Shown here: one piece after another, positions 13,830-63,902 of the stretch
Position numbering within the stretch: the first letter of the stretch is position 1
Layout of the letters: every line of letters starts with the position of its first letter
From: Candidatus Kaiserbacteria bacterium RIFCSPHIGHO2_01_FULL_53_29
Lineage (GTDB): Bacteria > Patescibacteriota > Minisyncoccia > Phycocordibacterales > UBA2100
DNA length: 64,000 nt
Direction: 5' to 3'
Assembly: GCA_001781125.1 (NCBI GenBank)
Contig: MFKT01000029.1
Coordinates: 4,040 to 68,039 of the forward strand
Position numbers and translations under genes: made by a program
Notes under the pieces: generated by a model
Seen by the model: the letters and a program-made list of their open reading frames with translations, nothing else
Databases searched by the model: none
Told to the model about the DNA's origin: nothing

Positions 13830-13920
13830 ATTCCATTGGATGGAATGATAATCTACGTCGAATCCTTTGGAAGGATTCGACGTGATTTCCTAAATCCCAT
13901 TGGATGGGATTTAGGAAATC
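13830..13920. repeat. array of three perfect hairpins sharing a TGG loop (stems 7, 8 and 17 bp)
   Basis: ATTCCAT-tgg-ATGGAAT (13830..13846); GAATCCTT-tgg-AAGGATTC (13860..13878); GATTTCCTAAATCCCAT-tgg-ATGGGATTTAGGAAATC (13884..13920), directly 3' of argS. Confidence 0.6.
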
Positions 13921-15577
13921 ACATTCGCTCTGGAGCCGGAATGCCCAAAATCCAGAGACCGTTTTTCAATGTTTTTCGCACCGCATCCACGAGCGCGACT
14001 CTGTGGGCTGCTTCGGGAGTACCATCGAGAATATGTACCTGCGCGTACCAGCTGTTGAACGCGCTCGCGAATTCAAGAAGGTAGTTCGTTAGCAGATGCG
14101 GTTCGTTGTGTGATGATGCATATTCGACCGCTTCCGGGAAGCGGTGCAAAAACCGAGTAAGATCATCCGAGGCTCTATTGCTACCTACCTTAGAGGCGAC
14201 GCCTCTAAGGTTAGCTTGCTCGACGACCGCGCAGGCACGGGCGTGCGCATACTGCAGGTACGGACCAGAATCACCTTCGAGCGAGAGCGCGCGGTCGCGA
14301 TCAAAAATGATGTCTTTCCCCGATGCTTGCTTTAATATCTGATATTTGATCGCCGCTACCGCAACCTGCTGCGCGAGTACCTCGTGATCCTCCGCCCTGC
14401 TTTCCGCCCCCCGAACCTTCGCCGCTTCGGTAAGATCTACGAGCAATGATTCTCCTGTAATAACATTGCCGGTGCGCGAAGACATCTTGCCTTCAGCAAA
14501 ACGCATCATCCCGTGAGAAACATGCTGGATTTTAGGGGCAATATCCGGCAACACATCTTCCATCGCAGCTTTAACGACAGCAAAATAATCAGCCTGCTCG
14601 TGCGCAGTCACGGTAATTGAAGTATCGAAGCCCCAAGTTTCCGCTTTCAACTCGGCAAGCCCAAGATCTTTTGCCTCGTACGTCGGCAGTCCCTTTGATG
14701 TAACGAACACGCGTGTGTGCAACTCCTTCTTCTCACCCTTGTACACAATCGCCCCGTCGCTTTTTTCAAACACTCCCGGATTCTTCTCAACGAGCTTCAG
14801 GCCGCGCGGAGCCGTCTCGCTCTCAAAAAAGTAATGATCGAATTTTGTACCCAACATTTTGTACAACTCCTCAAAATGATCGAGCGATGCTTTCCGGCCT
14901 GCTGCGTAGACGGCATTTATTTCCGCGTCAGACTTGTCGTAGACTTTTGTGTTTATGGCATCTACCTCTGCTTTGGCAGCAATATCGTTTTCATATGCCT
15001 GTGCTCCCGTCGCATAAGCTTTTCCAAGCTGCGCGGCATCATTCGGGTCAACGCCAAGCTTCATTACGCCCCAAATCGCTTTTGCCACATGCGGCCCGAT
15101 GTCACCCTGATAATTCGCACGCCTCACTTCCGCGCCGGAGAATTGCAAAAGCCGCGAGATGGATTCTCCTATCGCATTGCTCATCAAATGGCCGATGTGG
15201 AATTCCTTGAATGGGTTGGGGTCGGTGTACTCAACCATTATTTTCTTCCTCGCGAGATTTTTGTTAGCCCCCCACATATCCTCCGTACGCGCTTCCTCTA
15301 CCGCCTCGGCGAGCGCAGCGGATGCGAGATAAAAATTGATGAAGCCCGGCCCAGCGATCTCAATTTTCGCAATACCTTTAATGTCTCCAAGTGCGGCAAC
15401 GATTTTCTCCGCAAGCATTTTGGGCGCAACACCCGCTTGCTTCGTATACTGCAGTGCAACGCCGGAAGAATAATCTCCATTTTTCAACTCTGCCGGATGT
15501 TCGAGAGAAACATTTACACCATAAACACTCGCCCTCGCGAGTGCTTCCGAAATAGCCTTTTTTAGAGTCTCTGGCAT
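13919..15577 (-). CDS. argS: arginyl-tRNA synthetase
   Basis: class I HIGH (FKEFHIGH), C-terminal DALR anticodon-binding domain ending ...RM. Confidence 0.9.
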   Translation of the reverse strand: MPETLKKAISEALARASVYGVNVSLEHPAELKNGDYSSGVALQYTKQAGVAPKMLAEKIVAALGDIKGIAKIEIAGPGFINFYLASAALAEAVEEARTEDMWGANKNLARKKIMVEYTDPNPFKEFHIGHLMSNAIGESISRLLQFSGAEVRRANYQGDIGPHVAKAIWGVMKLGVDPNDAAQLGKAYATGAQAYENDIAAKAEVDAINTKVYDKSDAEINAVYAAGRKASLDHFEELYKMLGTKFDHYFFESETAPRGLKLVEKNPGVFEKSDGAIVYKGEKKELHTRVFVTSKGLPTYEAKDLGLAELKAETWGFDTSITVTAHEQADYFAVVKAAMEDVLPDIAPKIQHVSHGMMRFAEGKMSSRTGNVITGESLLVDLTEAAKVRGAESRAEDHEVLAQQVAVAAIKYQILKQASGKDIIFDRDRALSLEGDSGPYLQYAHARACAVVEQANLRGVASKVGSNRASDDLTRFLHRFPEAVEYASSHNEPHLLTNYLLEFASAFNSWYAQVHILDGTPEAAHRVALVDAVRKTLKNGLWILGIPAPERM

Positions 15578-17016: not shown

Positions 17017-17826
17017 CTACCGTATCTCGTACGTTACCGATACATTCGATGTGATCTTGTTCTGACCGACAGGAATTTCGGGAGATGGTGCGGATGCGGA
17101 ATCTGCCATGCCGGCACTCATCGCTTTGGCATAGTAGATCGGCTCACCGCCTCCGCCCTCGCTGAATCCGACGACACGCACGAGCGAGACGCCAAGCTGA
17201 CCAGCCAGAGCCTCGGCTTTGGCGCGCGCATCATCTATCGCCTTGCCGCGTGCCTGCGCTTCGAGCCCCTTCTGGTCATCGATCGTAAATGAAAGTCCCG
17301 AGACCGATGTCGCGCCCTTTGAGCCGACGCCCGCGAGTAGATCGCCTGCTTTTTTCGTATCGCGCACTTTCACGGTCAATGTTTGCGAGACCTGAAAACC
17401 GCGTAGTGTTTGTTTGCCGGGTGGGCAATAACCCTGTGTGCAGACCGTGTTGGTGTAGTCGTATTGCGGGTAGACATTGTAATCGGTGGTCTGAATATCT
17501 TTCTCATCAATGCCCTGCGATTTGAGATAGGCGATGATGTCATTGCCTTTCTTCGTCGCCACATCCTGCGCAGCTTTCACATCTTTCGCTTCTTCCTGAA
17601 TAGTCACCGAAAAAGTGGCCGTATCAGGGACCGCAAAGACCTCGCCGTCGCCGGAAACGCTGATCGTATTGGTCGCGGTAACACCTGAGCCGATAAAGCG
17701 GTATTCCTTCAGAGCAGAGATAGTAAGGATAAAGAGAAAAACCCCGAGCATACTAAGCGCGAACATCCCCGCGATCTGCATCCTCTGCGGCGGCACGATG
17801 TGGATCTCTTTCTTTTCAATATCCAT
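17017..17826 (-). CDS. SIMPL/DUF541 domain secreted protein
   Basis: N-terminal TM/signal anchor; DUF541-like pattern (GFQVSQTLTVKVRD...LAGQLGVSLVRVV). Confidence 0.65.
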   Translation of the reverse strand: MDIEKKEIHIVPPQRMQIAGMFALSMLGVFLFILTISALKEYRFIGSGVTATNTISVSGDGEVFAVPDTATFSVTIQEEAKDVKAAQDVATKKGNDIIAYLKSQGIDEKDIQTTDYNVYPQYDYTNTVCTQGYCPPGKQTLRGFQVSQTLTVKVRDTKKAGDLLAGVGSKGATSVSGLSFTIDDQKGLEAQARGKAIDDARAKAEALAGQLGVSLVRVVGFSEGGGGEPIYYAKAMSAGMADSASAPSPEIPVGQNKITSNVSVTYEIR

Positions 17827-17891
17827 GGCAAATAGTTAGTAGTTAGTAGTAATTAGTTAGTAGACCAGTAGACGGATTGTACTATGAAAAC

Positions 17892-36564: not shown

Positions 36565-36981
36565 ATGAAAAAACTCACCAAGAGGGGTTTTACCCTTATC
36601 GAATTACTCGTTGTTATCGCTATTATTGGGATTCTTGCGTCGATCGTGCTCGCCTCGCTCAACACAGCTCGTGTAAAAGCCCGCGACGCGCGGCGCCTTG
36701 CTGACGTAGATGCGATCAAGAAAGCTCTCGCCCTCTACAACAACGACAATAATGTCTATCCGGTGTTTGCGGCGAGCACAACCATCACGGGAGCAGATGC
36801 CGTCTCAACGGCACTCGTCGAAGCTGGTTCTATCTCCACGGTACCGTCAGATCCGCAGGGGGGAACGAATACATACCACTACAAGAGCGATGCCACAGGA
36901 GGCACTTACTGGATCGGATTCTGTATGGAGAATGCCAATAATAACCACGTACAGGGCTGCAACAACTTCACTACTCCGTAA
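36565..36981 (+). CDS. type IV pilin / pseudopilin with prepilin N-methylation site
   Basis: KRGFTLIELLVVIAIIGILASIVL class III signal, Cys pair near C-terminus. Confidence 0.8.
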   Translation: MKKLTKRGFTLIELLVVIAIIGILASIVLASLNTARVKARDARRLADVDAIKKALALYNNDNNVYPVFAASTTITGADAVSTALVEAGSISTVPSDPQGGTNTYHYKSDATGGTYWIGFCMENANNNHVQGCNNFTTP

Positions 36982-37064: not shown

Positions 37065-37535
37065 ATGCCCCCACAGAGAGTGGTCTTGCGCTGGAGCGCG
37101 TATGAACACGAGCATATCGAGCGCGGGAGCGATTGGTTTTGGGCTCTTGGCATCGTGGCCATCTCAGCCGCTCTCACGAGCATACTTTTCCACGACGTGC
37201 TCTTCGCGGTACTGATACTCATTGCCGCAACAGTGCTGGGCATGCTCGCCAATGCGCCACCGGATCTTATGCGGTTCGAGATCTCCGACCGCGGCATACG
37301 CGTCGGCGATACCATGCATCGTTTTGAGGAGGTCATTTCGTTTTGGGTGGAAGAGGAAGGGCACGAGCGACCGCTCCTTCTGGTAGACACCACCAAATTC
37401 ATGGCACCGAATCTGATCATTCCTCTTGAGAACATCGACCCGCATGTGGTGCGAACCTATCTGCGCGCTCACACCGACGAAGTCCCGATGAAAGAACCGG
37501 TCGCACATAAGATTTTAGAGTTCTTCGGACTCTAA
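37065..37535 (+). CDS. hypothetical membrane protein
   Basis: two TM helices then soluble domain; no motif. Confidence 0.45.
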   Translation: MPPQRVVLRWSAYEHEHIERGSDWFWALGIVAISAALTSILFHDVLFAVLILIAATVLGMLANAPPDLMRFEISDRGIRVGDTMHRFEEVISFWVEEEGHERPLLLVDTTKFMAPNLIIPLENIDPHVVRTYLRAHTDEVPMKEPVAHKILEFFGL

Positions 37536-37537
37536 AA

Positions 37538-37572
37538 TAGCTACTAGCCACTAGGGTTTAGCCACTAGTGAA
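37538..37572. repeat. left arm of imperfect inverted repeat (TAGCCACTAG x2)
   Basis: tagctactagccactagggtttagccactagtgaa; same arm recurs at 50719..50750. Confidence 0.7.
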
Positions 37573-37910
37573 GAGAGTAATTTGTTCAGCATTCGCATCG
37601 TCTCATTCAATAGACCAGCCGTTTTCGAGACTTCAACGCGGCTTACAAATTGTAACTTCTCGGCAAGTATTAGATGGGTCTCCAATTCCGCACCGGAACC
37701 GAACGCTACCCTTAGAAATTGCACATACTCTGCACGATGCTTGCGTGCAAAACCTTCGGCAATGTTTGCGGGAATCGAGACCGCAGCTCGCCGCATCTGA
37801 CTTATAAGTCCGAACATTTCTTCTTTTGGGAATTTTCGCGTGAGTCGATACACTTCAGCAACAAGTTCTACGCCACGTTGCCATACAATTAAATCTTGGT
37901 ATGACTGCAT
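37551..37910 (-). CDS. four-helix-bundle protein of the 23S rRNA intervening-sequence protein family (PF05635/TIGR02436-like)
   Basis: MQSYQDLIVWQRGVELVAEVYRLTRKFPKEE...IAEGFARK...AFGSGAELETHLILA signature; C-terminus LVAKP-stop encoded by the left repeat arm. Confidence 0.8.
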   Translation of the reverse strand: MQSYQDLIVWQRGVELVAEVYRLTRKFPKEEMFGLISQMRRAAVSIPANIAEGFARKHRAEYVQFLRVAFGSGAELETHLILAEKLQFVSRVEVSKTAGLLNETMRMLNKLLSSLVAKP

Positions 37911-37916
37911 TTTCCA

Positions 37917-37948
37917 GTCGCTAGTGGCTATTGGCTAGTTACTACCAC
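37917..37948. repeat. right arm of imperfect inverted repeat (CGCTAGTGGCTATTGGCTAG)
   Basis: approximate reverse complement of left arm; recurs at 50765..50791; overlaps stop of giant gene A. Confidence 0.7.
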
Positions 37949-40585
37949 GGTTGCATCTTTCGTCCCGCCTGCGAGCGTCTGGCAGTGCAGGAGGAATGTC
38001 GCCTGCGAGAAAACCGGCGACGTGACAGCCGTGCCGCTCACGCTTGTGTTGTAGGAGTTGGCCGCGGTGAAATCCGCCTGATCGGGGCTCGAGATGACAC
38101 ATGATTGCATGCCGGTCGTGACCCAGCCCAAAAGCGCGGTCTTGCCCGAGGCAACGGTCTTGGGGTTGGCGACAAGGATAGTAGAAGGTTTGTTGACTTG
38201 GACGGAGCACTGCGCGCCTGCGGTACGTCCCTGGTCGGTGCAGGTGAGAGCGTAGGTGGCGGTGTTGGCTCCTGCGGGAGGACTACCTATCGTTGTGCTT
38301 GCCACACCTGATTGCGCGCCTGCGGTATCGAAGCCCGAACCCTTGCTCGTGCCTACAGAGCAGGAATACGCGAAGGCTACCATCATGCCGACATCGGCGA
38401 GCTGGGGCTGGCAGGATAATTCGGCCCTGAGCGGAACGAGTGGCGGGGTAGGTGGGGTGGAAGTCGCCGTGCCGGAAGTTACGGTGATGGTTATACTACT
38501 GATAACGTTGCCGTTGGAGGTGAGTTGCACTTGGTACGGGCCGGCAGCTGCGTAGGTATGCGTCTTCGTAAGATTGGCGGGAGGGCAGGTAGCAGCGCCG
38601 CATCCCGAGCCCACGAAATTGGTGCCGTCACCAAAATCAATCGTTGATGGGACCGGTACCATGCCGGTAAAGGTGACCGTAAGGGGTGCGGGACCGGAGG
38701 TTGGATTAGCAGTGAAGTTCGTGTTGGTCGGATTCGGAACGCACTGCCAATTGGTGACGCACTGACCATTCATGACCGGCTGCCACTGTCCGACAGAGCA
38801 GTTTGCAGCAGGTGGAGTCTGCTGCAACTGGAGTTGGCATTGATTGCCGGTGGAGGGCGTGCATTGCTGTGGCTGTTGGGGCGGTGCCGTGATTTGCTGC
38901 TGTTGAACTGGAGCCTGCGGCGCGTACCCCTGCTGCGCGTAGTACTGATTGAGCTGTTGTTGATATTGCTGCTGCTGTTGTTGTTGCTGCTGCTGGTATT
39001 GATACTGCTGCAGTTGGAAATTATATTGTTGCAGCTGCTGCTGGTATTGCTGCTGCCATTGCGCATACGCCTGTGGATCGCTCGGACATTGTTGCGGGGG
39101 CGGAAGAGGCTGCGGGGGCGGTGGTTGATTCAACCCGAGCGCTTTGCCGATCGAGTTCATCATCGAACTCATCGGATTGCCGCCACCGCTACTCGCCGGA
39201 GGACGCGGTGGTTGCTGCTGTTGCTGCGGTTGTTGGAAGGTGCTGTTTATCCTGCAGTCCGGAGGATTGCCACCGTTTGAACATACGGACTGTATCTTAC
39301 AGCCGTTGGCGGGATCGCCGCCGTTCGCGCATTGTTTGGGTGGCTCATTACCCGGCTTGCAGGGAGGCGCGGTACGATCCCTACATATTGTTCCGGGTGG
39401 CGCTTCAGATGACCCCTTTGTGCAGAGGCCAGATGCATCGCATTTGAATCCCAGACTTTCAATATATTTGCGTTCTGCTTCGTTGGCAGGTCTTGCCTCC
39501 CATTTATTATCTTCTATTCGAGAAATGTCTGTCTTGGTTGTCTCCGATGTTATACCACCCGACACCACTGGGCGTTCCGGAGGAGTAAGTGGTGTCGGGC
39601 TCGTGCACCACTCTGGAGGTGAATCCCTCTTACATGCATCAGCAATCGCAGTGTCGACATCTTTAGAATCCTTGTCCGCGTCCGGATCGGGACTGTACGC
39701 GGCGATTTCTTTGATTTTTACCCCATCGGGGGCCTTAAGCGTGCCGTCTGAATCCACAAGCATTTCATTCGTTGAATTCGTAGGGTCCTTACCGAATGCA
39801 CTATTAATGATATCTTGCTGAGTTTGATCGATGCCACAACCCACGAGGCATGAGGGTTCCCACTTGCCCGTCAAGAAATTTTTTCGCACAGTAAAACCAT
39901 CGCTCGACAATTTATCTACGACCAGTGCCTTGTTTATTCCTTTCGAAATGATAGGGACACATCTCATAACCGAACTTATGGGTGAATATGAAGTTGTTGT
40001 GTCAACGCACGCAGTCGTTTTACACGTACCTGGCGATACCTTCGGATTCGGTTCAGCTTTGATCTTAAGGGTGCCGTCTGGCTTAACAGTGACAGTGGCG
40101 GATTTCCCAACGCATTTGAAATTGCCCGGTTTTGCCGGATCGGGGGCAGCAGCAACACAGTCATCGGAGTTGGGGTCCGTTGGTTTAGCAGCTACCTTCG
40201 TCGTAGCTGCAGTTTTTGCTGTAGCAATCGCAATCCCACATTTATTCAAGATTTCCTCATCGACTTTCGCTTTGGCATCCGCTTCAGCTTTCGCTGTAGC
40301 TTCCGCATCAGCCTTTGCTTTGGCATCTGGCGGAGGAGCTGTGGCGGTAGCTGCTGGTGTCGCTGCGGGAGCTGGAAGCAGGTAGGGGACACCACCAGTC
40401 GACGGCATCGCTTGCGTTCTTGGGGGGGGGATGTCTGCGGCAAGAATGGCTCCGGCAGCCTGCTGCGGTTGATTGCCCGTTGGCATAGGAGTAAAAGATT
40501 GGAGCGCTATCGCCGTGACCGCGAGGGCGGCGAGCAGACCTATCACGGGCAAAACAGCAAAACCCCGGGACGCGGATCGGAACAT
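37928..40585 (-). CDS. giant secreted surface protein A (885 aa): A/K-rich, Cys-containing modules, Q/P-rich low complexity, PKD domain
   Basis: signal peptide; PKD signature FTANPTSGPAPLTVTFTG...DFGDGT...HTY; C-terminal 250 aa near-identical to giant B. Confidence 0.7.
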   Translation of the reverse strand: MFRSASRGFAVLPVIGLLAALAVTAIALQSFTPMPTGNQPQQAAGAILAADIPPPRTQAMPSTGGVPYLLPAPAATPAATATAPPPDAKAKADAEATAKAEADAKAKVDEEILNKCGIAIATAKTAATTKVAAKPTDPNSDDCVAAAPDPAKPGNFKCVGKSATVTVKPDGTLKIKAEPNPKVSPGTCKTTACVDTTTSYSPISSVMRCVPIISKGINKALVVDKLSSDGFTVRKNFLTGKWEPSCLVGCGIDQTQQDIINSAFGKDPTNSTNEMLVDSDGTLKAPDGVKIKEIAAYSPDPDADKDSKDVDTAIADACKRDSPPEWCTSPTPLTPPERPVVSGGITSETTKTDISRIEDNKWEARPANEAERKYIESLGFKCDASGLCTKGSSEAPPGTICRDRTAPPCKPGNEPPKQCANGGDPANGCKIQSVCSNGGNPPDCRINSTFQQPQQQQQPPRPPASSGGGNPMSSMMNSIGKALGLNQPPPPQPLPPPQQCPSDPQAYAQWQQQYQQQLQQYNFQLQQYQYQQQQQQQQQQYQQQLNQYYAQQGYAPQAPVQQQQITAPPQQPQQCTPSTGNQCQLQLQQTPPAANCSVGQWQPVMNGQCVTNWQCVPNPTNTNFTANPTSGPAPLTVTFTGMVPVPSTIDFGDGTNFVGSGCGAATCPPANLTKTHTYAAAGPYQVQLTSNGNVISSITITVTSGTATSTPPTPPLVPLRAELSCQPQLADVGMMVAFAYSCSVGTSKGSGFDTAGAQSGVASTTIGSPPAGANTATYALTCTDQGRTAGAQCSVQVNKPSTILVANPKTVASGKTALLGWVTTGMQSCVISSPDQADFTAANSYNTSVSGTAVTSPVFSQATFLLHCQTLAGGTKDATVVVTSQ

Positions 40586-49734: not shown

Positions 49735-50718
49735 ATGATAAAGAGAGTCCTCATCATCTCCCTTGTGTTCTTCATCATCGGGCTCATCCTCTTTTGGTTG
49801 ATAAGCGGAGGTCTAAGTGCTTCTGCGCGCACCGCGCGCACGCTCGGCAATCCGATCGATTATATTTTCGGCAGTGGCACCTCGCCCGGCATATCATTCC
49901 GGCTGCCGTGGCAGCCAGCATCTCTCCCTCAAGGACCGGATATTTCAGGTGATGCGGAAGTCGACGCGCAAAACGATGCTCCCGGAAATGAAGAACGAGG
50001 ATCAAATGCGAGCCCGCAGCCTTCCGAGCTCCGCACATTCGGCAATCCCTCACCCTCTGCGGGTAAGATCACGCTCACGGACAATTCGGCGACCGAGAGC
50101 GATGCTACAGCGGAATATATCAAGATCGAGGCATCCGGAAGTAACACCGCGCCGATCGCTATCACGAATTGGTCCCTGCAAAGTGCGATTTCCGGACTTC
50201 GGACATACATTCCGCAAGGCGCGCCACTGTTCGTGATGGGCGTCATCAACAACGTGGAGAAGGTATATCTTGAGCCGGGAGCCTCTGCGATCGTCACCAC
50301 GAGCGCCTCCCCCGTCGGAGTCTCATTCCGCGAAAATATCTGCAGCGGCTACCTCGGCGAACTGCAAACATTCACTCCGGAGATAGGAAATGCGTGCCCC
50401 CACGCCTCAGAGACCCTCGCGAAGAATCCGCAGAACCTGCAGACCTATAGTGGCGCCTGCTTCGACTATCTGGATACTCTTCCTTCGTGCCACTTCCCTA
50501 CCGATCTTCCTTCAGAACTCTCGTCGACGTGCCGATCATTCATTGCAAACACGATGTCGTACAACGGCTGTGTAAATACCTCTCGCAACGATCCAACATT
50601 CGCACTCCACTCGTGGCGACTCTTTCTCAACATGCGCACCGAACTCTGGTACAACACGCACGATGTGATCCGGCTCTTGGACGACCAGGGGCGGACCGTG
50701 GACGTACTCACATATTAG
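49735..50718 (+). CDS. hypothetical secreted protein with lamin-tail-like (LTD) region
   Basis: signal anchor; EYIKIEASGSNTAPIAITNWSL LTD-like strand pattern. Confidence 0.45.
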   Translation: MIKRVLIISLVFFIIGLILFWLISGGLSASARTARTLGNPIDYIFGSGTSPGISFRLPWQPASLPQGPDISGDAEVDAQNDAPGNEERGSNASPQPSELRTFGNPSPSAGKITLTDNSATESDATAEYIKIEASGSNTAPIAITNWSLQSAISGLRTYIPQGAPLFVMGVINNVEKVYLEPGASAIVTTSASPVGVSFRENICSGYLGELQTFTPEIGNACPHASETLAKNPQNLQTYSGACFDYLDTLPSCHFPTDLPSELSSTCRSFIANTMSYNGCVNTSRNDPTFALHSWRLFLNMRTELWYNTHDVIRLLDDQGRTVDVLTY

Positions 50719-50791
50719 TGATTAGCCACTAGGGTTTAGCCACTAGTGAATCCTGAATTCATCTAATCGCTAGTGGCTATTGGCTAACATC
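50719..50791. repeat. second, cargo-free copy of the 37538/37917 inverted-repeat hairpin
   Basis: tgattagccactagggtttagccactagtgaa - 14 nt - aatcgctagtggctattggctaacatc; sits at convergent gene ends. Confidence 0.7.
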
Positions 50792-51273
50792 TGAAACAAT
50801 ACAATTCCGGCTGCGACGGAAACATTCAGTGATTCTTTTTTGCCGTGCATCGGTATTTCGATAAGGACATCGCATTTCGCACGCAACTCATGGGAGAGTC
50901 CGCGCACTTCATTACCGAAAATAAAAAGTGTCGGGGCTTTGACCCTGTATTTCCGATAGTCGCGAGATCGGCGATCCTGCTCAACGCCAACGATTCCCCA
51001 CTTCTGTTTCTTTCCTCCGGAGGAGGATCCGCCTCCGGCGGATAATTTTGAAATGAGCGGCACGGGCGACTTGAAATATTCCCATGGCAGAGATCTCTCC
51101 GCGCCGAGCGCTGTCTTTGCGATTTCTTTTTGTGGCCGACCGAACCTGTCGATCGGCACCGGCGTATATCCGCAGAGGTAGATCTTCGCAACACCCGCCG
51201 CATCGGCGGTGCGGAATATCGAGCCCACATTATGTGCGCTCCGGATATTGTGCAATAAAATAGCGATAGGCAT
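50770..51273 (-). CDS. SpoU/TrmH family RNA 2'-O-methyltransferase
   Basis: LLHNIRSAHNVGSIFRTADAAGV and IFGNEVRGLS...IPMHG SPOUT motifs; Gly/Ser-rich insert; C-terminus encoded in repeat arm. Confidence 0.8.
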   Translation of the reverse strand: MPIAILLHNIRSAHNVGSIFRTADAAGVAKIYLCGYTPVPIDRFGRPQKEIAKTALGAERSLPWEYFKSPVPLISKLSAGGGSSSGGKKQKWGIVGVEQDRRSRDYRKYRVKAPTLFIFGNEVRGLSHELRAKCDVLIEIPMHGKKESLNVSVAAGIVLFQMLANSH

Positions 51274-51338
51274 ATGAACACCATATGCTCTTGTTGTATT
51301 TGCTACAAGCTGTAAGCTACAAGCTACAAGCTTTATTT

Positions 51339-51737
51339 ATGCTTTCCCTTTTCCCCCAGCTGCTCTTTCTTGCGCCCTTCTCGGCAACACTCCTGCGCAT
51401 CGCGGCAGCTGTGGTCTTCTTCTCGATCGCGTGGACGCACTGGCAGAAGCGCGAGCAACTTGGGGACATAGAATTCATCGTCGTCGGTAAAGGAACGTGG
51501 ATCCCGACTTTCGCCGCAGCCCTGGAATTTCTCATCGCGGTTGGTTTATTCCTCGGCATGTATGTCCAGCTCGTCGCGATCCTCGGCGCACTTGCGGCGC
51601 TCAAAGCGCTGATCTGGAAACGTCGCTACAGCGTCATGATCCCTATCTCGCGCACCGCGAGCGCATTAGTTTTTGTCATCTGCCTCTCGCTCGTCTTCAC
51701 CGGCGCGGGCGCATTCGCCTTCGACCTGCCGCTTTAA
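51339..51737 (+). CDS. DoxX-like small membrane protein
   Basis: 4 TM helices; ORF 51285..51737, start uncertain. Confidence 0.4.
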   Translation: MLSLFPQLLFLAPFSATLLRIAAAVVFFSIAWTHWQKREQLGDIEFIVVGKGTWIPTFAAALEFLIAVGLFLGMYVQLVAILGALAALKALIWKRRYSVMIPISRTASALVFVICLSLVFTGAGAFAFDLPL

Positions 51738-63401: not shown

Positions 63402-63902
63402 GACGCTTTCACAGCATAAAACCCGATTATGTGATTGCAAACGAGCCTGCCCCGTTAGAAATATACTCTCACAATTTACGACACATCAATTGCCAAGAAG
63501 AAACATTCTCTGCGCAGTGGAAAAACGCTTCCTAATTTCTTTTGGGGTGCTATCGTTCAAACAGGAAGGGCTTGCCCTTCGAAGTTTTAGCGAAGAAGGG
63601 AGGTGCACACTATCGGGCGATGCTTTTGTAAAAAAGTTGCAACCAGGCCCTGAGGATGGCGGCAGCCGTCCCGCCAAGGCGGGAAACCGCCGCGTCCTTG
63701 GAAAAGTTACCATCGCCCGATACTGTGCATCTCTATGAAAGGCTTGCCGATGCCACGGGTGTGGCGGGCAGAGAAAAAGCGCAAACAGCGCTTTCTGACA
63801 GAGAGTATAGCATATTAGAATGAATTGTCAACCCCATTAGAGAGCTCCGAAGTTTGCCTCTAACGGGGCATGGCCACCTCAATTCGATCCATATTGGATC
63901 CA

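Follow-up and report, generated by a model that had tools for sequence, protein, structure and literature searches.

In a 64,000-nt stretch of the genome of Candidatus Kaiserbacteria bacterium RIFCSPHIGHO2_01_FULL_53_29 (contig MFKT01000029.1), which has a G+C content of 53% and is referred to below as the window, two arrays of 7-nt units in opposite orientation enclose a single small gene between two protein-coding neighbours (locus A), and the same arms recur elsewhere in the window without the gene (locus B). The gene of locus A is an open reading frame (ORF) of 119 aa at 37551..37910 on the minus strand, with profile matches to the four-helix-bundle family PF05635/TIGR02436/NF008911. Upstream of it, on the ORF strand, lies the 5′ arm (37917..37944, minus), composed of the units TAGTAAC, TAGCCAA, TAGCCAC and TAGCGAC and separated from the ATG (37908-37910) by a 6-nt spacer, TGGAAA (37911..37916, minus). 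The 3′ arm (37538..37572), which reads on the plus strand as the five units TAGCTAC, TAGCCAC, TAGGGTT, TAGCCAC and TAGTGAA, encodes the last six codons (SLVAKP) and the stop of the ORF. The arms also reach the neighbouring genes: the 3′ arm begins 2 nt past the TAA (37533-37535) of a convergent 156-aa gene, a stop that lies 15 nt beyond that of the ORF, and the 5′ arm carries the last three codons and the stop (37928-37930, 17 nt before the ATG) of an 885-aa gene situated upstream of the ORF and co-directional with it. An earlier interpretation made from the DNA letters alone (the sequence-only reading) had recognised the complementary arms around the ORF, the arm-encoded ORF tail and the arm-encoded stop of the giant 885-aa gene, all of which stand; its placement of the element at convergent 3′ ends holds for the 3′ side of the ORF only, and the giant gene lies upstream of the ORF, not downstream.

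Profile searches placed the locus A protein above the cutoffs of the family to which the sequence-only reading had assigned it, with E = 1.1e-37 and 128.9 bits for PF05635 (cutoff 33.8), E = 3e-35 and 120.7 bits for TIGR02436 (cutoff 24), and a score of 150.8 for the subfamily model NF008911, ‘23S rRNA intervening sequence protein’ (cutoff 137). The protein is 100% identical to one Candidatus Kaiserbacteria protein and matches XCC0516 (PDB 2GSC), a solved pentameric four-helix bundle, with E = 2e-21. An AlphaFold2 model of the single chain reached a predicted local distance difference test (pLDDT) score of 94.7 with helices at residues 8-24, 35-55, 59-85 and 91-117; Foldseek aligned this model to 2GSC with a template modelling (TM) score of 0.93 and to BT_0352 (2RLD) with 0.82, and its fold is also similar to that of Avd from diversity-generating retroelements (DGRs; TM about 0.8 to 4DWL and 8UB7). 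Among 27 relatives, 35 residues are invariant. The segment RRAAVSIPANIAEG holds R41, S45, N49 and E52, which form an RxxxSxxxNxxE motif in which S45, N49 and E52 are invariant and R41 is conserved in at least 90% of the relatives; the family motif has been given in the form GxxRxxxSxxxNxxE (PMC3936711). Residues 79-100 are a variable stretch in the alignment of the 27 relatives, the remainder of the protein being highly conserved. The PADLOC defence library contained no match for the gene.

The arm pairs of both loci were found as inverted repeats, of 27 nt (74% complementary, 346 nt apart), 20 nt (85%) and 32 nt (78%), and the arms of locus A close both the minimum free energy (MFE) and the centroid structure of the 426-nt fold of locus A. 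The left arm TTAGCCACTAGGGTTTAGCCACTAGTGA matches the window at 37544-37571 with one mismatch and at 50722-50749 with none, and the right arm TCGCTAGTGGCTATTGGCTA is exact at 37918-37937 and 50767-50786; in the shuffled window there was no chance match to either arm, in line with the proposal that the two loci can be aligned beyond chance. Furthermore, the 10-mer TAGCCACTAG was matched, with at most one mismatch, ten times against 1.15 expected, nine of the ten matches falling inside loci A and B. The 7-nt period, which the sequence-only reading did not contain and which was seen in this analysis, is legible directly in the arm sequences of both loci; the window-wide threshold of a scan at lag 7 was reached by the right arm of locus A only, the other arms being too imperfect. 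No promoter-like site was found by a promoter scan at either locus, and no rRNA match was obtained anywhere in the 64-kb window, both neighbours of locus A being protein-coding ORFs. A scan for terminator consensus sequences gave no U-tract terminator match at either hairpin, and most of the related cassettes described below lie between co-directional genes; the earlier suggestion of a bidirectional terminator was therefore abandoned.

Locus B consists of a left arm (50716..50750) with the units TAGTGAT, TAGCCAC, TAGGGTT, TAGCCAC and TAGTGAA, a loop of 15 nt, TCCTGAATTCATCTA (50751..50765), that is partly palindromic around GAATTC, and a right arm (50766..50787). These arms are identical to those of locus A at 27 of 28 and 20 of 20 positions, respectively, so that the recurrence of the arm pair noticed from the sequence is upheld, with a spacing of 15-18 nt between the arm blocks instead of 14 nt. 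The hairpin has a folding energy of −29.7 kcal/mol (z = −4.6), and none of 200 shuffles was as stable. It is set among genes for a Mur ligase, an LTD-like protein and a convergent SpoU-type RNA methyltransferase, and here too the arms supply gene ends: the first TAG of the left arm is the stop of a 327-aa gene (49735..50718), and the SpoU gene (50770..51273, minus) owes its final five codons (LANSH) and its stop (50770-50772) to the right arm. At the orthologous site in two relatives (L215, L216) there is no intergenic DNA and the convergent stop codons overlap; because these relatives have overlapping stops without the hairpin, the locus B hairpin is an insertion placed exactly at the stop codons. 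The arm-encoded extension MLANSH of the window SpoU protein is absent from the homologues examined (L214, L215), which end earlier, and the protein measures 167 aa against about 152-158 aa in most of the homologues listed; the window protein also contains a Gly/Ser-rich insertion, SAGGGSSSGGKKQKW, in common with a 174-aa relative in L214. A third relative has a hairpin at the orthologous site that is built from other units (ACGTAGT/TCGTAGA and their inverse). Comparison of locus B with the empty orthologous sites, the only locus so compared and one at which the array ends are hard to delimit, revealed no recognisable target-site duplication.

The sequence-only reading took the two loci for an occupied and an empty copy of one element. 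The pairing of a gene-bearing with a gene-less copy is confirmed, yet locus B is likelier to be a decayed or miniature derivative than a target that was never occupied, because gene-less copies in related genomes retain remnants of the ORF ends. Two such hairpins of the TAGCCAC family from bacteria of the candidate phyla radiation (CPR) are instructive: one (L028) keeps about 19 nt of the ORF 3′ end, and the other (L080) keeps the start-codon region together with 7 nt of the 3′ end. Since the ORF ends survive in them, at least some gene-less copies are internally deleted cassettes. The 15-nt loop of locus B itself, when aligned to the ORF, showed no convincing remnant or similarity.

The same arrangement surrounds relatives of the gene at many other places. 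Relatives with 42-83% identity show the arm-ORF-arm layout at unrelated genomic sites, and three of them, retrieved by exact protein look-up, occupy the khpA-trmD gap, the syntenic site beside the giant gene and a gap between LemA and an M48 peptidase; in all three the upstream array is of the TAGCCAC type and stops 4-10 nt short of the ATG, and the 3′ end carries an inverse array. One of the three has its 3′ array beyond the stop codon, which means that conservation of the arm is not a by-product of protein conservation. The khpA-trmD and LemA-M48 genes are not in the window, so empty sites from which to set boundaries are not available there. We then examined 80 metagenomic loci with relatives at 49-74% identity, picked regardless of their flanks, and found inverted heptamer arrays at nearly all of them, with many different units (for example TAGGCAA/TTGCCTA, TTAGCTT/AAGCTAA, GGGAATA/TATTCCC, GCTTTCA/TGAAAGC and GTGAGTA/TACTCAC). 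We took a census of cassettes in CPR bacteria, cyanobacteria, Xanthomonas, Riemerella, Azospirillum and viral contigs; of the 91 that were non-redundant, 68 had inverted arms scoring beyond the 99th percentile of shuffles, 7 had direct arrays and 16 showed neither.

The periodicity and the complementarity of the arms were quantified separately. Across 71 cassettes, autocorrelation of the flanks peaked at lags 7 and 14, with values at lag 7 of 0.46 and 0.43 against about 0.25. A strict lag-7 threshold of 23/28 missed most arms, which are short and imperfect, and a graded score with control windows was used instead; by this score 51 of 69 upstream flanks (74%) and 47 of 69 downstream flanks (68%) exceeded the 95th percentile of control windows, compared with 29% of the other intergenic gaps in the same loci. 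Arm complementarity reached a mean score of 32.8 for the two arms of one cassette, relative to 14.8 for shuffles and 17.4 for arms combined across loci. A unit could be read clearly on both sides at 37 loci, which gave 36 distinct units; the upstream unit agreed with the reverse-complemented downstream unit at 5.54 of 7 positions within a locus and at 3.93 of 7 across loci. The unit sequence is thus cassette-specific, yet matched between the two arms of a cassette. TAG or TAA occurs inside 77 of 94 units. Geometry was determined for 58 cassettes: the stem measures 32 nt at the median, a median of 9 nt separates the end of the 5′ arm from the start codon, and at 35 loci the 3′ arm starts within the coding sequence. 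The median gap to the neighbouring ORFs is 46 nt upstream and 35 nt downstream, and the upstream neighbour lies on the same strand in 55 of 71 cassettes; the cassette fills the entire intergenic gap, and the adjacent genes end within the arrays.

The arms are also conserved beyond what the protein requires. A second Kaiserbacteria genome carries the cassette at the same site, with 65% identity in the neighbouring protein and 71% in the intervening-sequence protein (IVP) encoded by the cassette; there the 3′ arm is identical to that of the window at 30 of 32 nt, and the 5′ arm has the same units in a different order. When five cassettes with a SLVAKP-type tail were compared, synonymous codons were identical in 42 of 48 cases (0.88) within the six arm-encoded codons, relative to 259 of 740 (0.35) elsewhere in the ORF. 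As judged from these codon comparisons, the part of the arm that lies within the ORF is constrained at the nucleotide level, and the conserved C-terminal tail of the protein alignment largely reflects that constraint.

A link to rRNA intervening sequences (IVSs) was provided by plasmid AZO_p2 of Azospirillum lipoferum (L211), in which a PF05635 ORF lies inside a 23S rRNA gene (Rfam, 2529 bits) and occupies the loop of a large-subunit hairpin at model positions of about 1206-1226. By position and flanking sequence, we take these positions to correspond to helix 45. The IVS of Coxiella has helix 45 as its host helix; its stem of terminal inverted repeats is 28 bp long and is cut in the middle by RNase III, an enzyme that also excises the IVSs of Salmonella, Leptospira and alphaproteobacteria (PMC4990558). 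The arms of the AZO_p2 element are inverted heptamer arrays (GAGGACG GATGACA GAGGACG GAGGACA and the inverse), and its MFE fold, which closes on them, exceeds shuffled sequences in stability by a wide margin (z = −8.3). This architecture indicates that the window cassette and the classical ORF-bearing IVS are one type of element, set in different hosts. An rRNA context was found for none of the about 80 metagenomic relatives, the sole rRNA-embedded copy having come from a plasmid collection; location outside rRNA is accordingly the rule for the family, not the exception. Together with the relatives at unrelated sites and the insertion at locus B, these data bear out the earlier proposal that the ORF-in-hairpin-loop architecture is not tied to rRNA. 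IVP-type ORFs have been recorded in 16S and 23S insertions of CPR bacteria (bioRxiv 10.1101/2024.02.27.582315), and the origin and mobility of IVSs have been called unresolved (PMC4990558).

Copies of the cassette are spread widely across phyla and replicons. Inverted heptamer arms enclose the plasmid-borne copies in Nostoc, Geminocystis, Picosynechococcus and Riemerella, those of Pseudanabaena and Gemmatirosa lie between direct arrays, and a Pirellulaceae copy is preceded by long direct arrays. One copy, in Brevundimonas, lies between (GTGGCTA)n and (TAGCCAC)n. Relatives occur on 11 viral contigs, eight of them with obvious inverted arms. Orthologues of XCC0516 in Xanthomonas lie between accB and accC and are flanked by GGGAATC-type units and their inverse. 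Family genes were also seen wedged in operons between cmr2 and cmr3 (L208), between cas6 and cas4 (L213), antisense between nrdB and nrdA (L206) and between accB and accC (L217/L219), the last in two Xanthomonas species, X. campestris and X. citri. Occurrence of the family inside cas loci is already on record (PMC3936711), and the published association with CRISPR-cas may be a by-product of intergenic insertion by a selfish intergenic cassette. Persistence at the same site was observed for the window and L003, for L005 and L127, and for the accB-accC copies of the two Xanthomonas species.

Gene-less arrays accompany the cassettes. In 161 kb of cassette flanks we found 42 extra arrays, several of them inverted pairs, and 28 of the 42 (67%) have an exact 8-mer in common with the arms of their own cassette, in comparison with 11.6% for the arms of other loci; the window, with gene-bearing locus A and gene-less locus B carrying the same arms, is an instance of this general pattern. 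Two paralogous copies within one genome have different units. Such a paralogue, a second and divergent PF05635 gene, was seen at 7664-7999 of L080 (Kaiserbacteria nzgw465), in the same genome as the syntenic cassette; its downstream array is made of GGAATAC/GGTATAC units, and its upstream side falls beyond the end of the block. Two metagenome contigs (L175, L195) each hold, within 3.3 kb, one cassette and two to three gene-less GCTTTCA/TGAAAGC inverted pairs, along with pairs of AACAGT-type and GAAACCT-type units, a mixture which suggests that several repeat families coexist in one genome. A scan of the genome collection with TAGCCACTAGNNNNTAGCCACTAG was too permissive and returned mostly pure (TAGCCAC)n microsatellites, so that occupied and empty copies were not counted; among the matches listed, a PF05635 gene was detectable, with a narrow profile, in 4 of 119 (TAGCCAC)n-array blocks. 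Gene-less (TAGCCAC)n arrays are present in several Brevundimonas and Caulobacteraceae genomes. The (TAGCCAC)n arrays among the matches listed (L007-L125) derive from many phyla, among them Proteobacteria, Planctomycetota, Bacteroidota, Cyanobacteria, Firmicutes, Chloroflexota and Acidobacteriota; units of the types TCACTAG, CCCCTAG and CCACGAG often stand beside them, and inverted pairs with a spacer of about 70 nt were seen at several loci (L024, L049).

Further repeats and genes were also seen in the window. An array of CTACTAA, CTAATTA, CTACTAA and CTACTAA (gene strand) at 17827-17875 is separated by a 9-nt gap from the ATG of a 269-aa ORF (17017..17826, minus); it has no inverse partner nearby and resembles the TAACTGA arrays found upstream of genes in Beggiatoaceae. 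Another array, with the units CTACAAG, CTGTAAG, CTACAAG and CTACAAG (51301-51336), lies where the SpoU gene and ORF 51285..51737 diverge and ends a few nucleotides before an in-frame ATG (51339-51341), a plausible alternative start of that ORF. Two inverted repeats bear no relation to the heptamer arms. One, at 13882-13922, is a perfect 19-nt palindrome whose loop measures 3 nt, and the other consists of 23-nt arms at 63600-63733 that are 91% complementary and 88 nt apart. Near locus A, the 885-aa gene (37928-40585, minus) encodes a protein with a signal-like N-terminus and long Gln/Pro-rich low-complexity stretches and without an NCBIfam match, and ORF 36565..36981 is type IV pilin-like, with the motif FTLIELLVV.

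Taken together, we favour, with a probability of roughly 55%, the interpretation that locus A is an IVS-type cassette living between protein genes and not in rRNA. The cassette consists of one PF05635 gene with an array of 7-nt units on each side, the two arrays being inverted relative to each other; upstream, the array stops a few nucleotides before the start codon, and downstream it begins inside the last codons, whereby the ORF borrows its tail and stop codon from the array. Since locus A leaves no space for a promoter and has no site resembling one, the likely source of expression is read-through from the upstream gene or host operon. In the transcript the arrays would pair in vivo into a stem of about 25-30 bp, and RNase III would cut this stem as it does in the characterised rRNA IVSs, freeing the ORF-bearing loop and leaving a functional host RNA. 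With TAG or TAA in nearly every unit, the arrays would place stops in all three frames and so seal the neighbouring frames wherever the element lands; read-through, pairing, cleavage and stop-rich units together would make insertion nearly harmless. On this model the element family would spread occasionally, persist for long periods and leave miniature derivatives, locus B being a non-autonomous or decayed member of the family and locus A its putative master copy.

Several results weigh against this interpretation. The energy of the whole 426-nt fold of locus A is unexceptional (z = −1.5), although the arms close the predicted structure. Stem mismatches in the sense orientation comprise 63 G.U and 69 A.C pairs (p = 0.66); this lack of a wobble excess means that nothing points to pairing selected in the sense RNA, and the complementarity could belong to the DNA level. 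Nor is a stem obligatory, because direct arrays are present at 7 of the cassettes and no array is detectable at 16. Base pairing alone gives no reason for a 7-nt period, and an RNase III cut within an operon transcript would split the cistrons. The long stability at individual sites implies that mobility must be rare, and neither a target-site duplication (at locus B) nor a mobility enzyme was found. The absence of a G.U excess, the direct or missing arrays, the period and the cassette-specific units with their cognate gene-less copies instead favour the main rival, a partnership between protein and repeat like that of REPIN-RAYT systems, in which the arrays would be a putative nucleic-acid ligand of the encoded pentamer, perhaps with one unit per protomer, and the arms would be complementary because both are arrays of the same binding unit in opposite orientation. 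Such a partnership accounts naturally for the periodicity and for the direct-array cases, and it is in keeping with units that differ even between two paralogues in one genome and with nearby gene-less arrays that carry the units of their own cassette; the symmetric mismatches would fit recognition of DNA or of either strand. Further support comes from the GGGAATC-type units beside the XCC0516 gene, the same heptamer that is dispersed in Xanthomonas (PMC4692102), from the (TAGCCAC)n units shared by the Brevundimonas cassette and the gene-less arrays of Brevundimonas and Caulobacteraceae, from the resemblance in fold to Avd, a pentamer in a reverse transcriptase-RNA complex, and from the single variable stretch (residues 79-100) in an otherwise highly conserved protein. 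Against it, no catalytic motif is known in the PF05635 family, PADLOC returned no match, and the arrays are far commoner than the gene, as the small share of (TAGCCAC)n blocks with a detectable PF05635 gene indicates. We regard this partnership as possible but tentative, and its fuller form, in which the pentamer ring is a sequence-specific partner of the heptamer arrays and gene and arrays propagate themselves in the manner of REPIN-RAYT but without a known nuclease, as somewhat more doubtful. The partnership is compatible with the IVS model, and both may be true together.

Two accounts in which the gene plays no active part fit less well. One treats the arms as terminal inverted repeats for a transposase or recombinase encoded elsewhere, with PF05635 as cargo and the gene-less hairpins as miniatures, in the manner of a miniature inverted-repeat transposable element (MITE). 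Identical arms at two window loci, the presence/absence polymorphism at the orthologous site of locus B, the ORF remnants in gene-less copies, the clustering of cognate copies, mismatch types that are symmetric between the strands and the copies on viral contigs and plasmids would all be expected of such an element; yet no target-site duplication was recognised at locus B and no transposase lies nearby, the overlap of an arm with the last ORF codons in most copies ties the gene to the arm, and a cargo that is constant across phyla beside arms that are free to vary is the reverse of what a trans-acting transposase predicts, so that we consider this account unlikely. The other dispenses with an element altogether: heptamer microsatellites would grow by slippage beside stop codons, the resulting hairpins would stabilise or terminate transcripts, and PF05635 genes would simply favour such regions. 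Although heptamer arrays are widespread without the gene, a lag-7 signal is present in more than a quarter of the other gaps of the same loci, two further window arrays stand directly upstream of start codons, and a hairpin of different units occupies the locus B site in another genome, independent slippage does not produce 28-nt and 20-nt arms with irregular units that are near-identical at two loci; moreover, PF05635 genes are flanked by arrays far more often than other gaps contain them, the arms are more conserved than synonymous sites, U-tract terminators are absent at loci A and B, and the same package is inserted in an rRNA helix in Azospirillum. We therefore hold this last account to be very improbable, well below the MITE-like one.

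The protein family, its occurrence in rRNA IVSs and in cas loci, its homology to Avd (PMC10053308) and heptameric arrays with inverted pairs are all known already; what appears to be new here are IVS-type cassettes that lie outside rRNA, have heptamer arrays as their arms and are accompanied by cognate gene-less hairpins. No description of heptamer periodicity in IVS arms was found in the literature surveyed, a term search of two heptamer-repeat studies (PMC4692102, PMC4679880) gave no mention of a PF05635 or S23 gene, and no paper linking PF05635 to heptamer arrays was found in the full-text literature, a body that leaves most subscription journals outside its coverage, so that a prior description is possible. 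ORF-bearing rRNA IVSs, the very widespread ‘four helix bundle / S23’ genes and the excess of intergenic heptamer repeats, so far treated as separate matters, seem to belong to a single phenomenon. In that case, what the protein family does would become directly testable, XCC0516 would gain a candidate ligand in the (GGGAATC)n arrays that flank its own gene, and many non-rRNA examples would be at hand for the question of how IVSs originate and move; Avd, a relative of the S23 genes, is essential to DGRs. The partnership, if true, would also explain the over-represented intergenic heptamer repeats, such as the short tandemly repeated repetitive (STRR) sequences of cyanobacteria and the GGGAATC repeats of Xanthomonas, the origin of ORF-bearing IVSs, and the presence of four-helix-bundle genes wedged in accBC, cas and cmr operons and in nrdAB. 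For genome annotation, the results imply that C-terminal tails and stop codons of neighbouring genes can come from heptamer arrays.

The window cassette may be compared with several known systems. To Avd of DGRs the locus A protein has weak profile matches (PF22296, 23.3 bits with a cutoff of 40; NF033474, 26.8 with a cutoff of 80), but unlike Avd it has no reverse transcriptase beside its gene, the flanking genes having no NCBIfam match and template and variable repeats not having been searched for. Locus B is similar to a MITE in that its inverted termini are identical to those of a larger, gene-bearing copy and related gene-less copies keep internal remnants, whereas no target-site duplication is recognisable at locus B and the full-length copy encodes no transposase. 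REPIN-RAYT systems pair doublets of repetitive extragenic palindromic (REP) sequences, palindromes of 20-35 nt, with a domesticated Y1 transposase, the REP-associated tyrosine transposase (Nunvar 2010, Bertels and Rainey 2011, Ton-Hoang 2012). They resemble the window in that a single gene is flanked by inverted short repeats that are also dispersed as gene-less hairpins, and they resemble the cassettes in general in that different gene copies go with different repeat families; in contrast, the window gene encodes a 119-aa four-helix bundle without an HUH/Y1 motif, its repeats are arrays of 7-nt units, and no activity of the protein on them is known.

Heptameric tandem repeats have been described as GGGAATC in Xanthomonas, where 70-75 inverted pairs occur per genome, and as GGGGAYT in Nostoc (PMC4692102), and as TAACTGA arrays in Beggiatoaceae (PMC4679880). 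Like the window arrays, these and the cyanobacterial STRR sequences are intergenic, have units characteristic of the genome and often end just upstream of start codons, and those of Xanthomonas are often inverted pairs, as in the window; in the studies concerned, however, the arrays are discussed as microsatellites, as regulatory leaders or as sequences that form G-quadruplexes, and the window arrays are short (three to five imperfect units) relative to the published ones. The closest counterparts are the ORF-bearing 23S rRNA IVSs of Leptospira, Coxiella burnetii (S23p) and AZO_p2. An rRNA IVS is by definition inserted in a helix of 23S (or 16S) rRNA, whereas the window cassette lies between protein genes and its arms give the neighbouring ORFs their stop codons. 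The two also have features in common: both encode a PF05635 protein, and in both the ORF, running in the sense direction relative to the host transcript, occupies the loop of a long stem whose sides are terminal inverted repeats. In the window these are arms of 20-27 nt that are 74-85% complementary, and in AZO_p2, as in the window, these arms are heptamer arrays.

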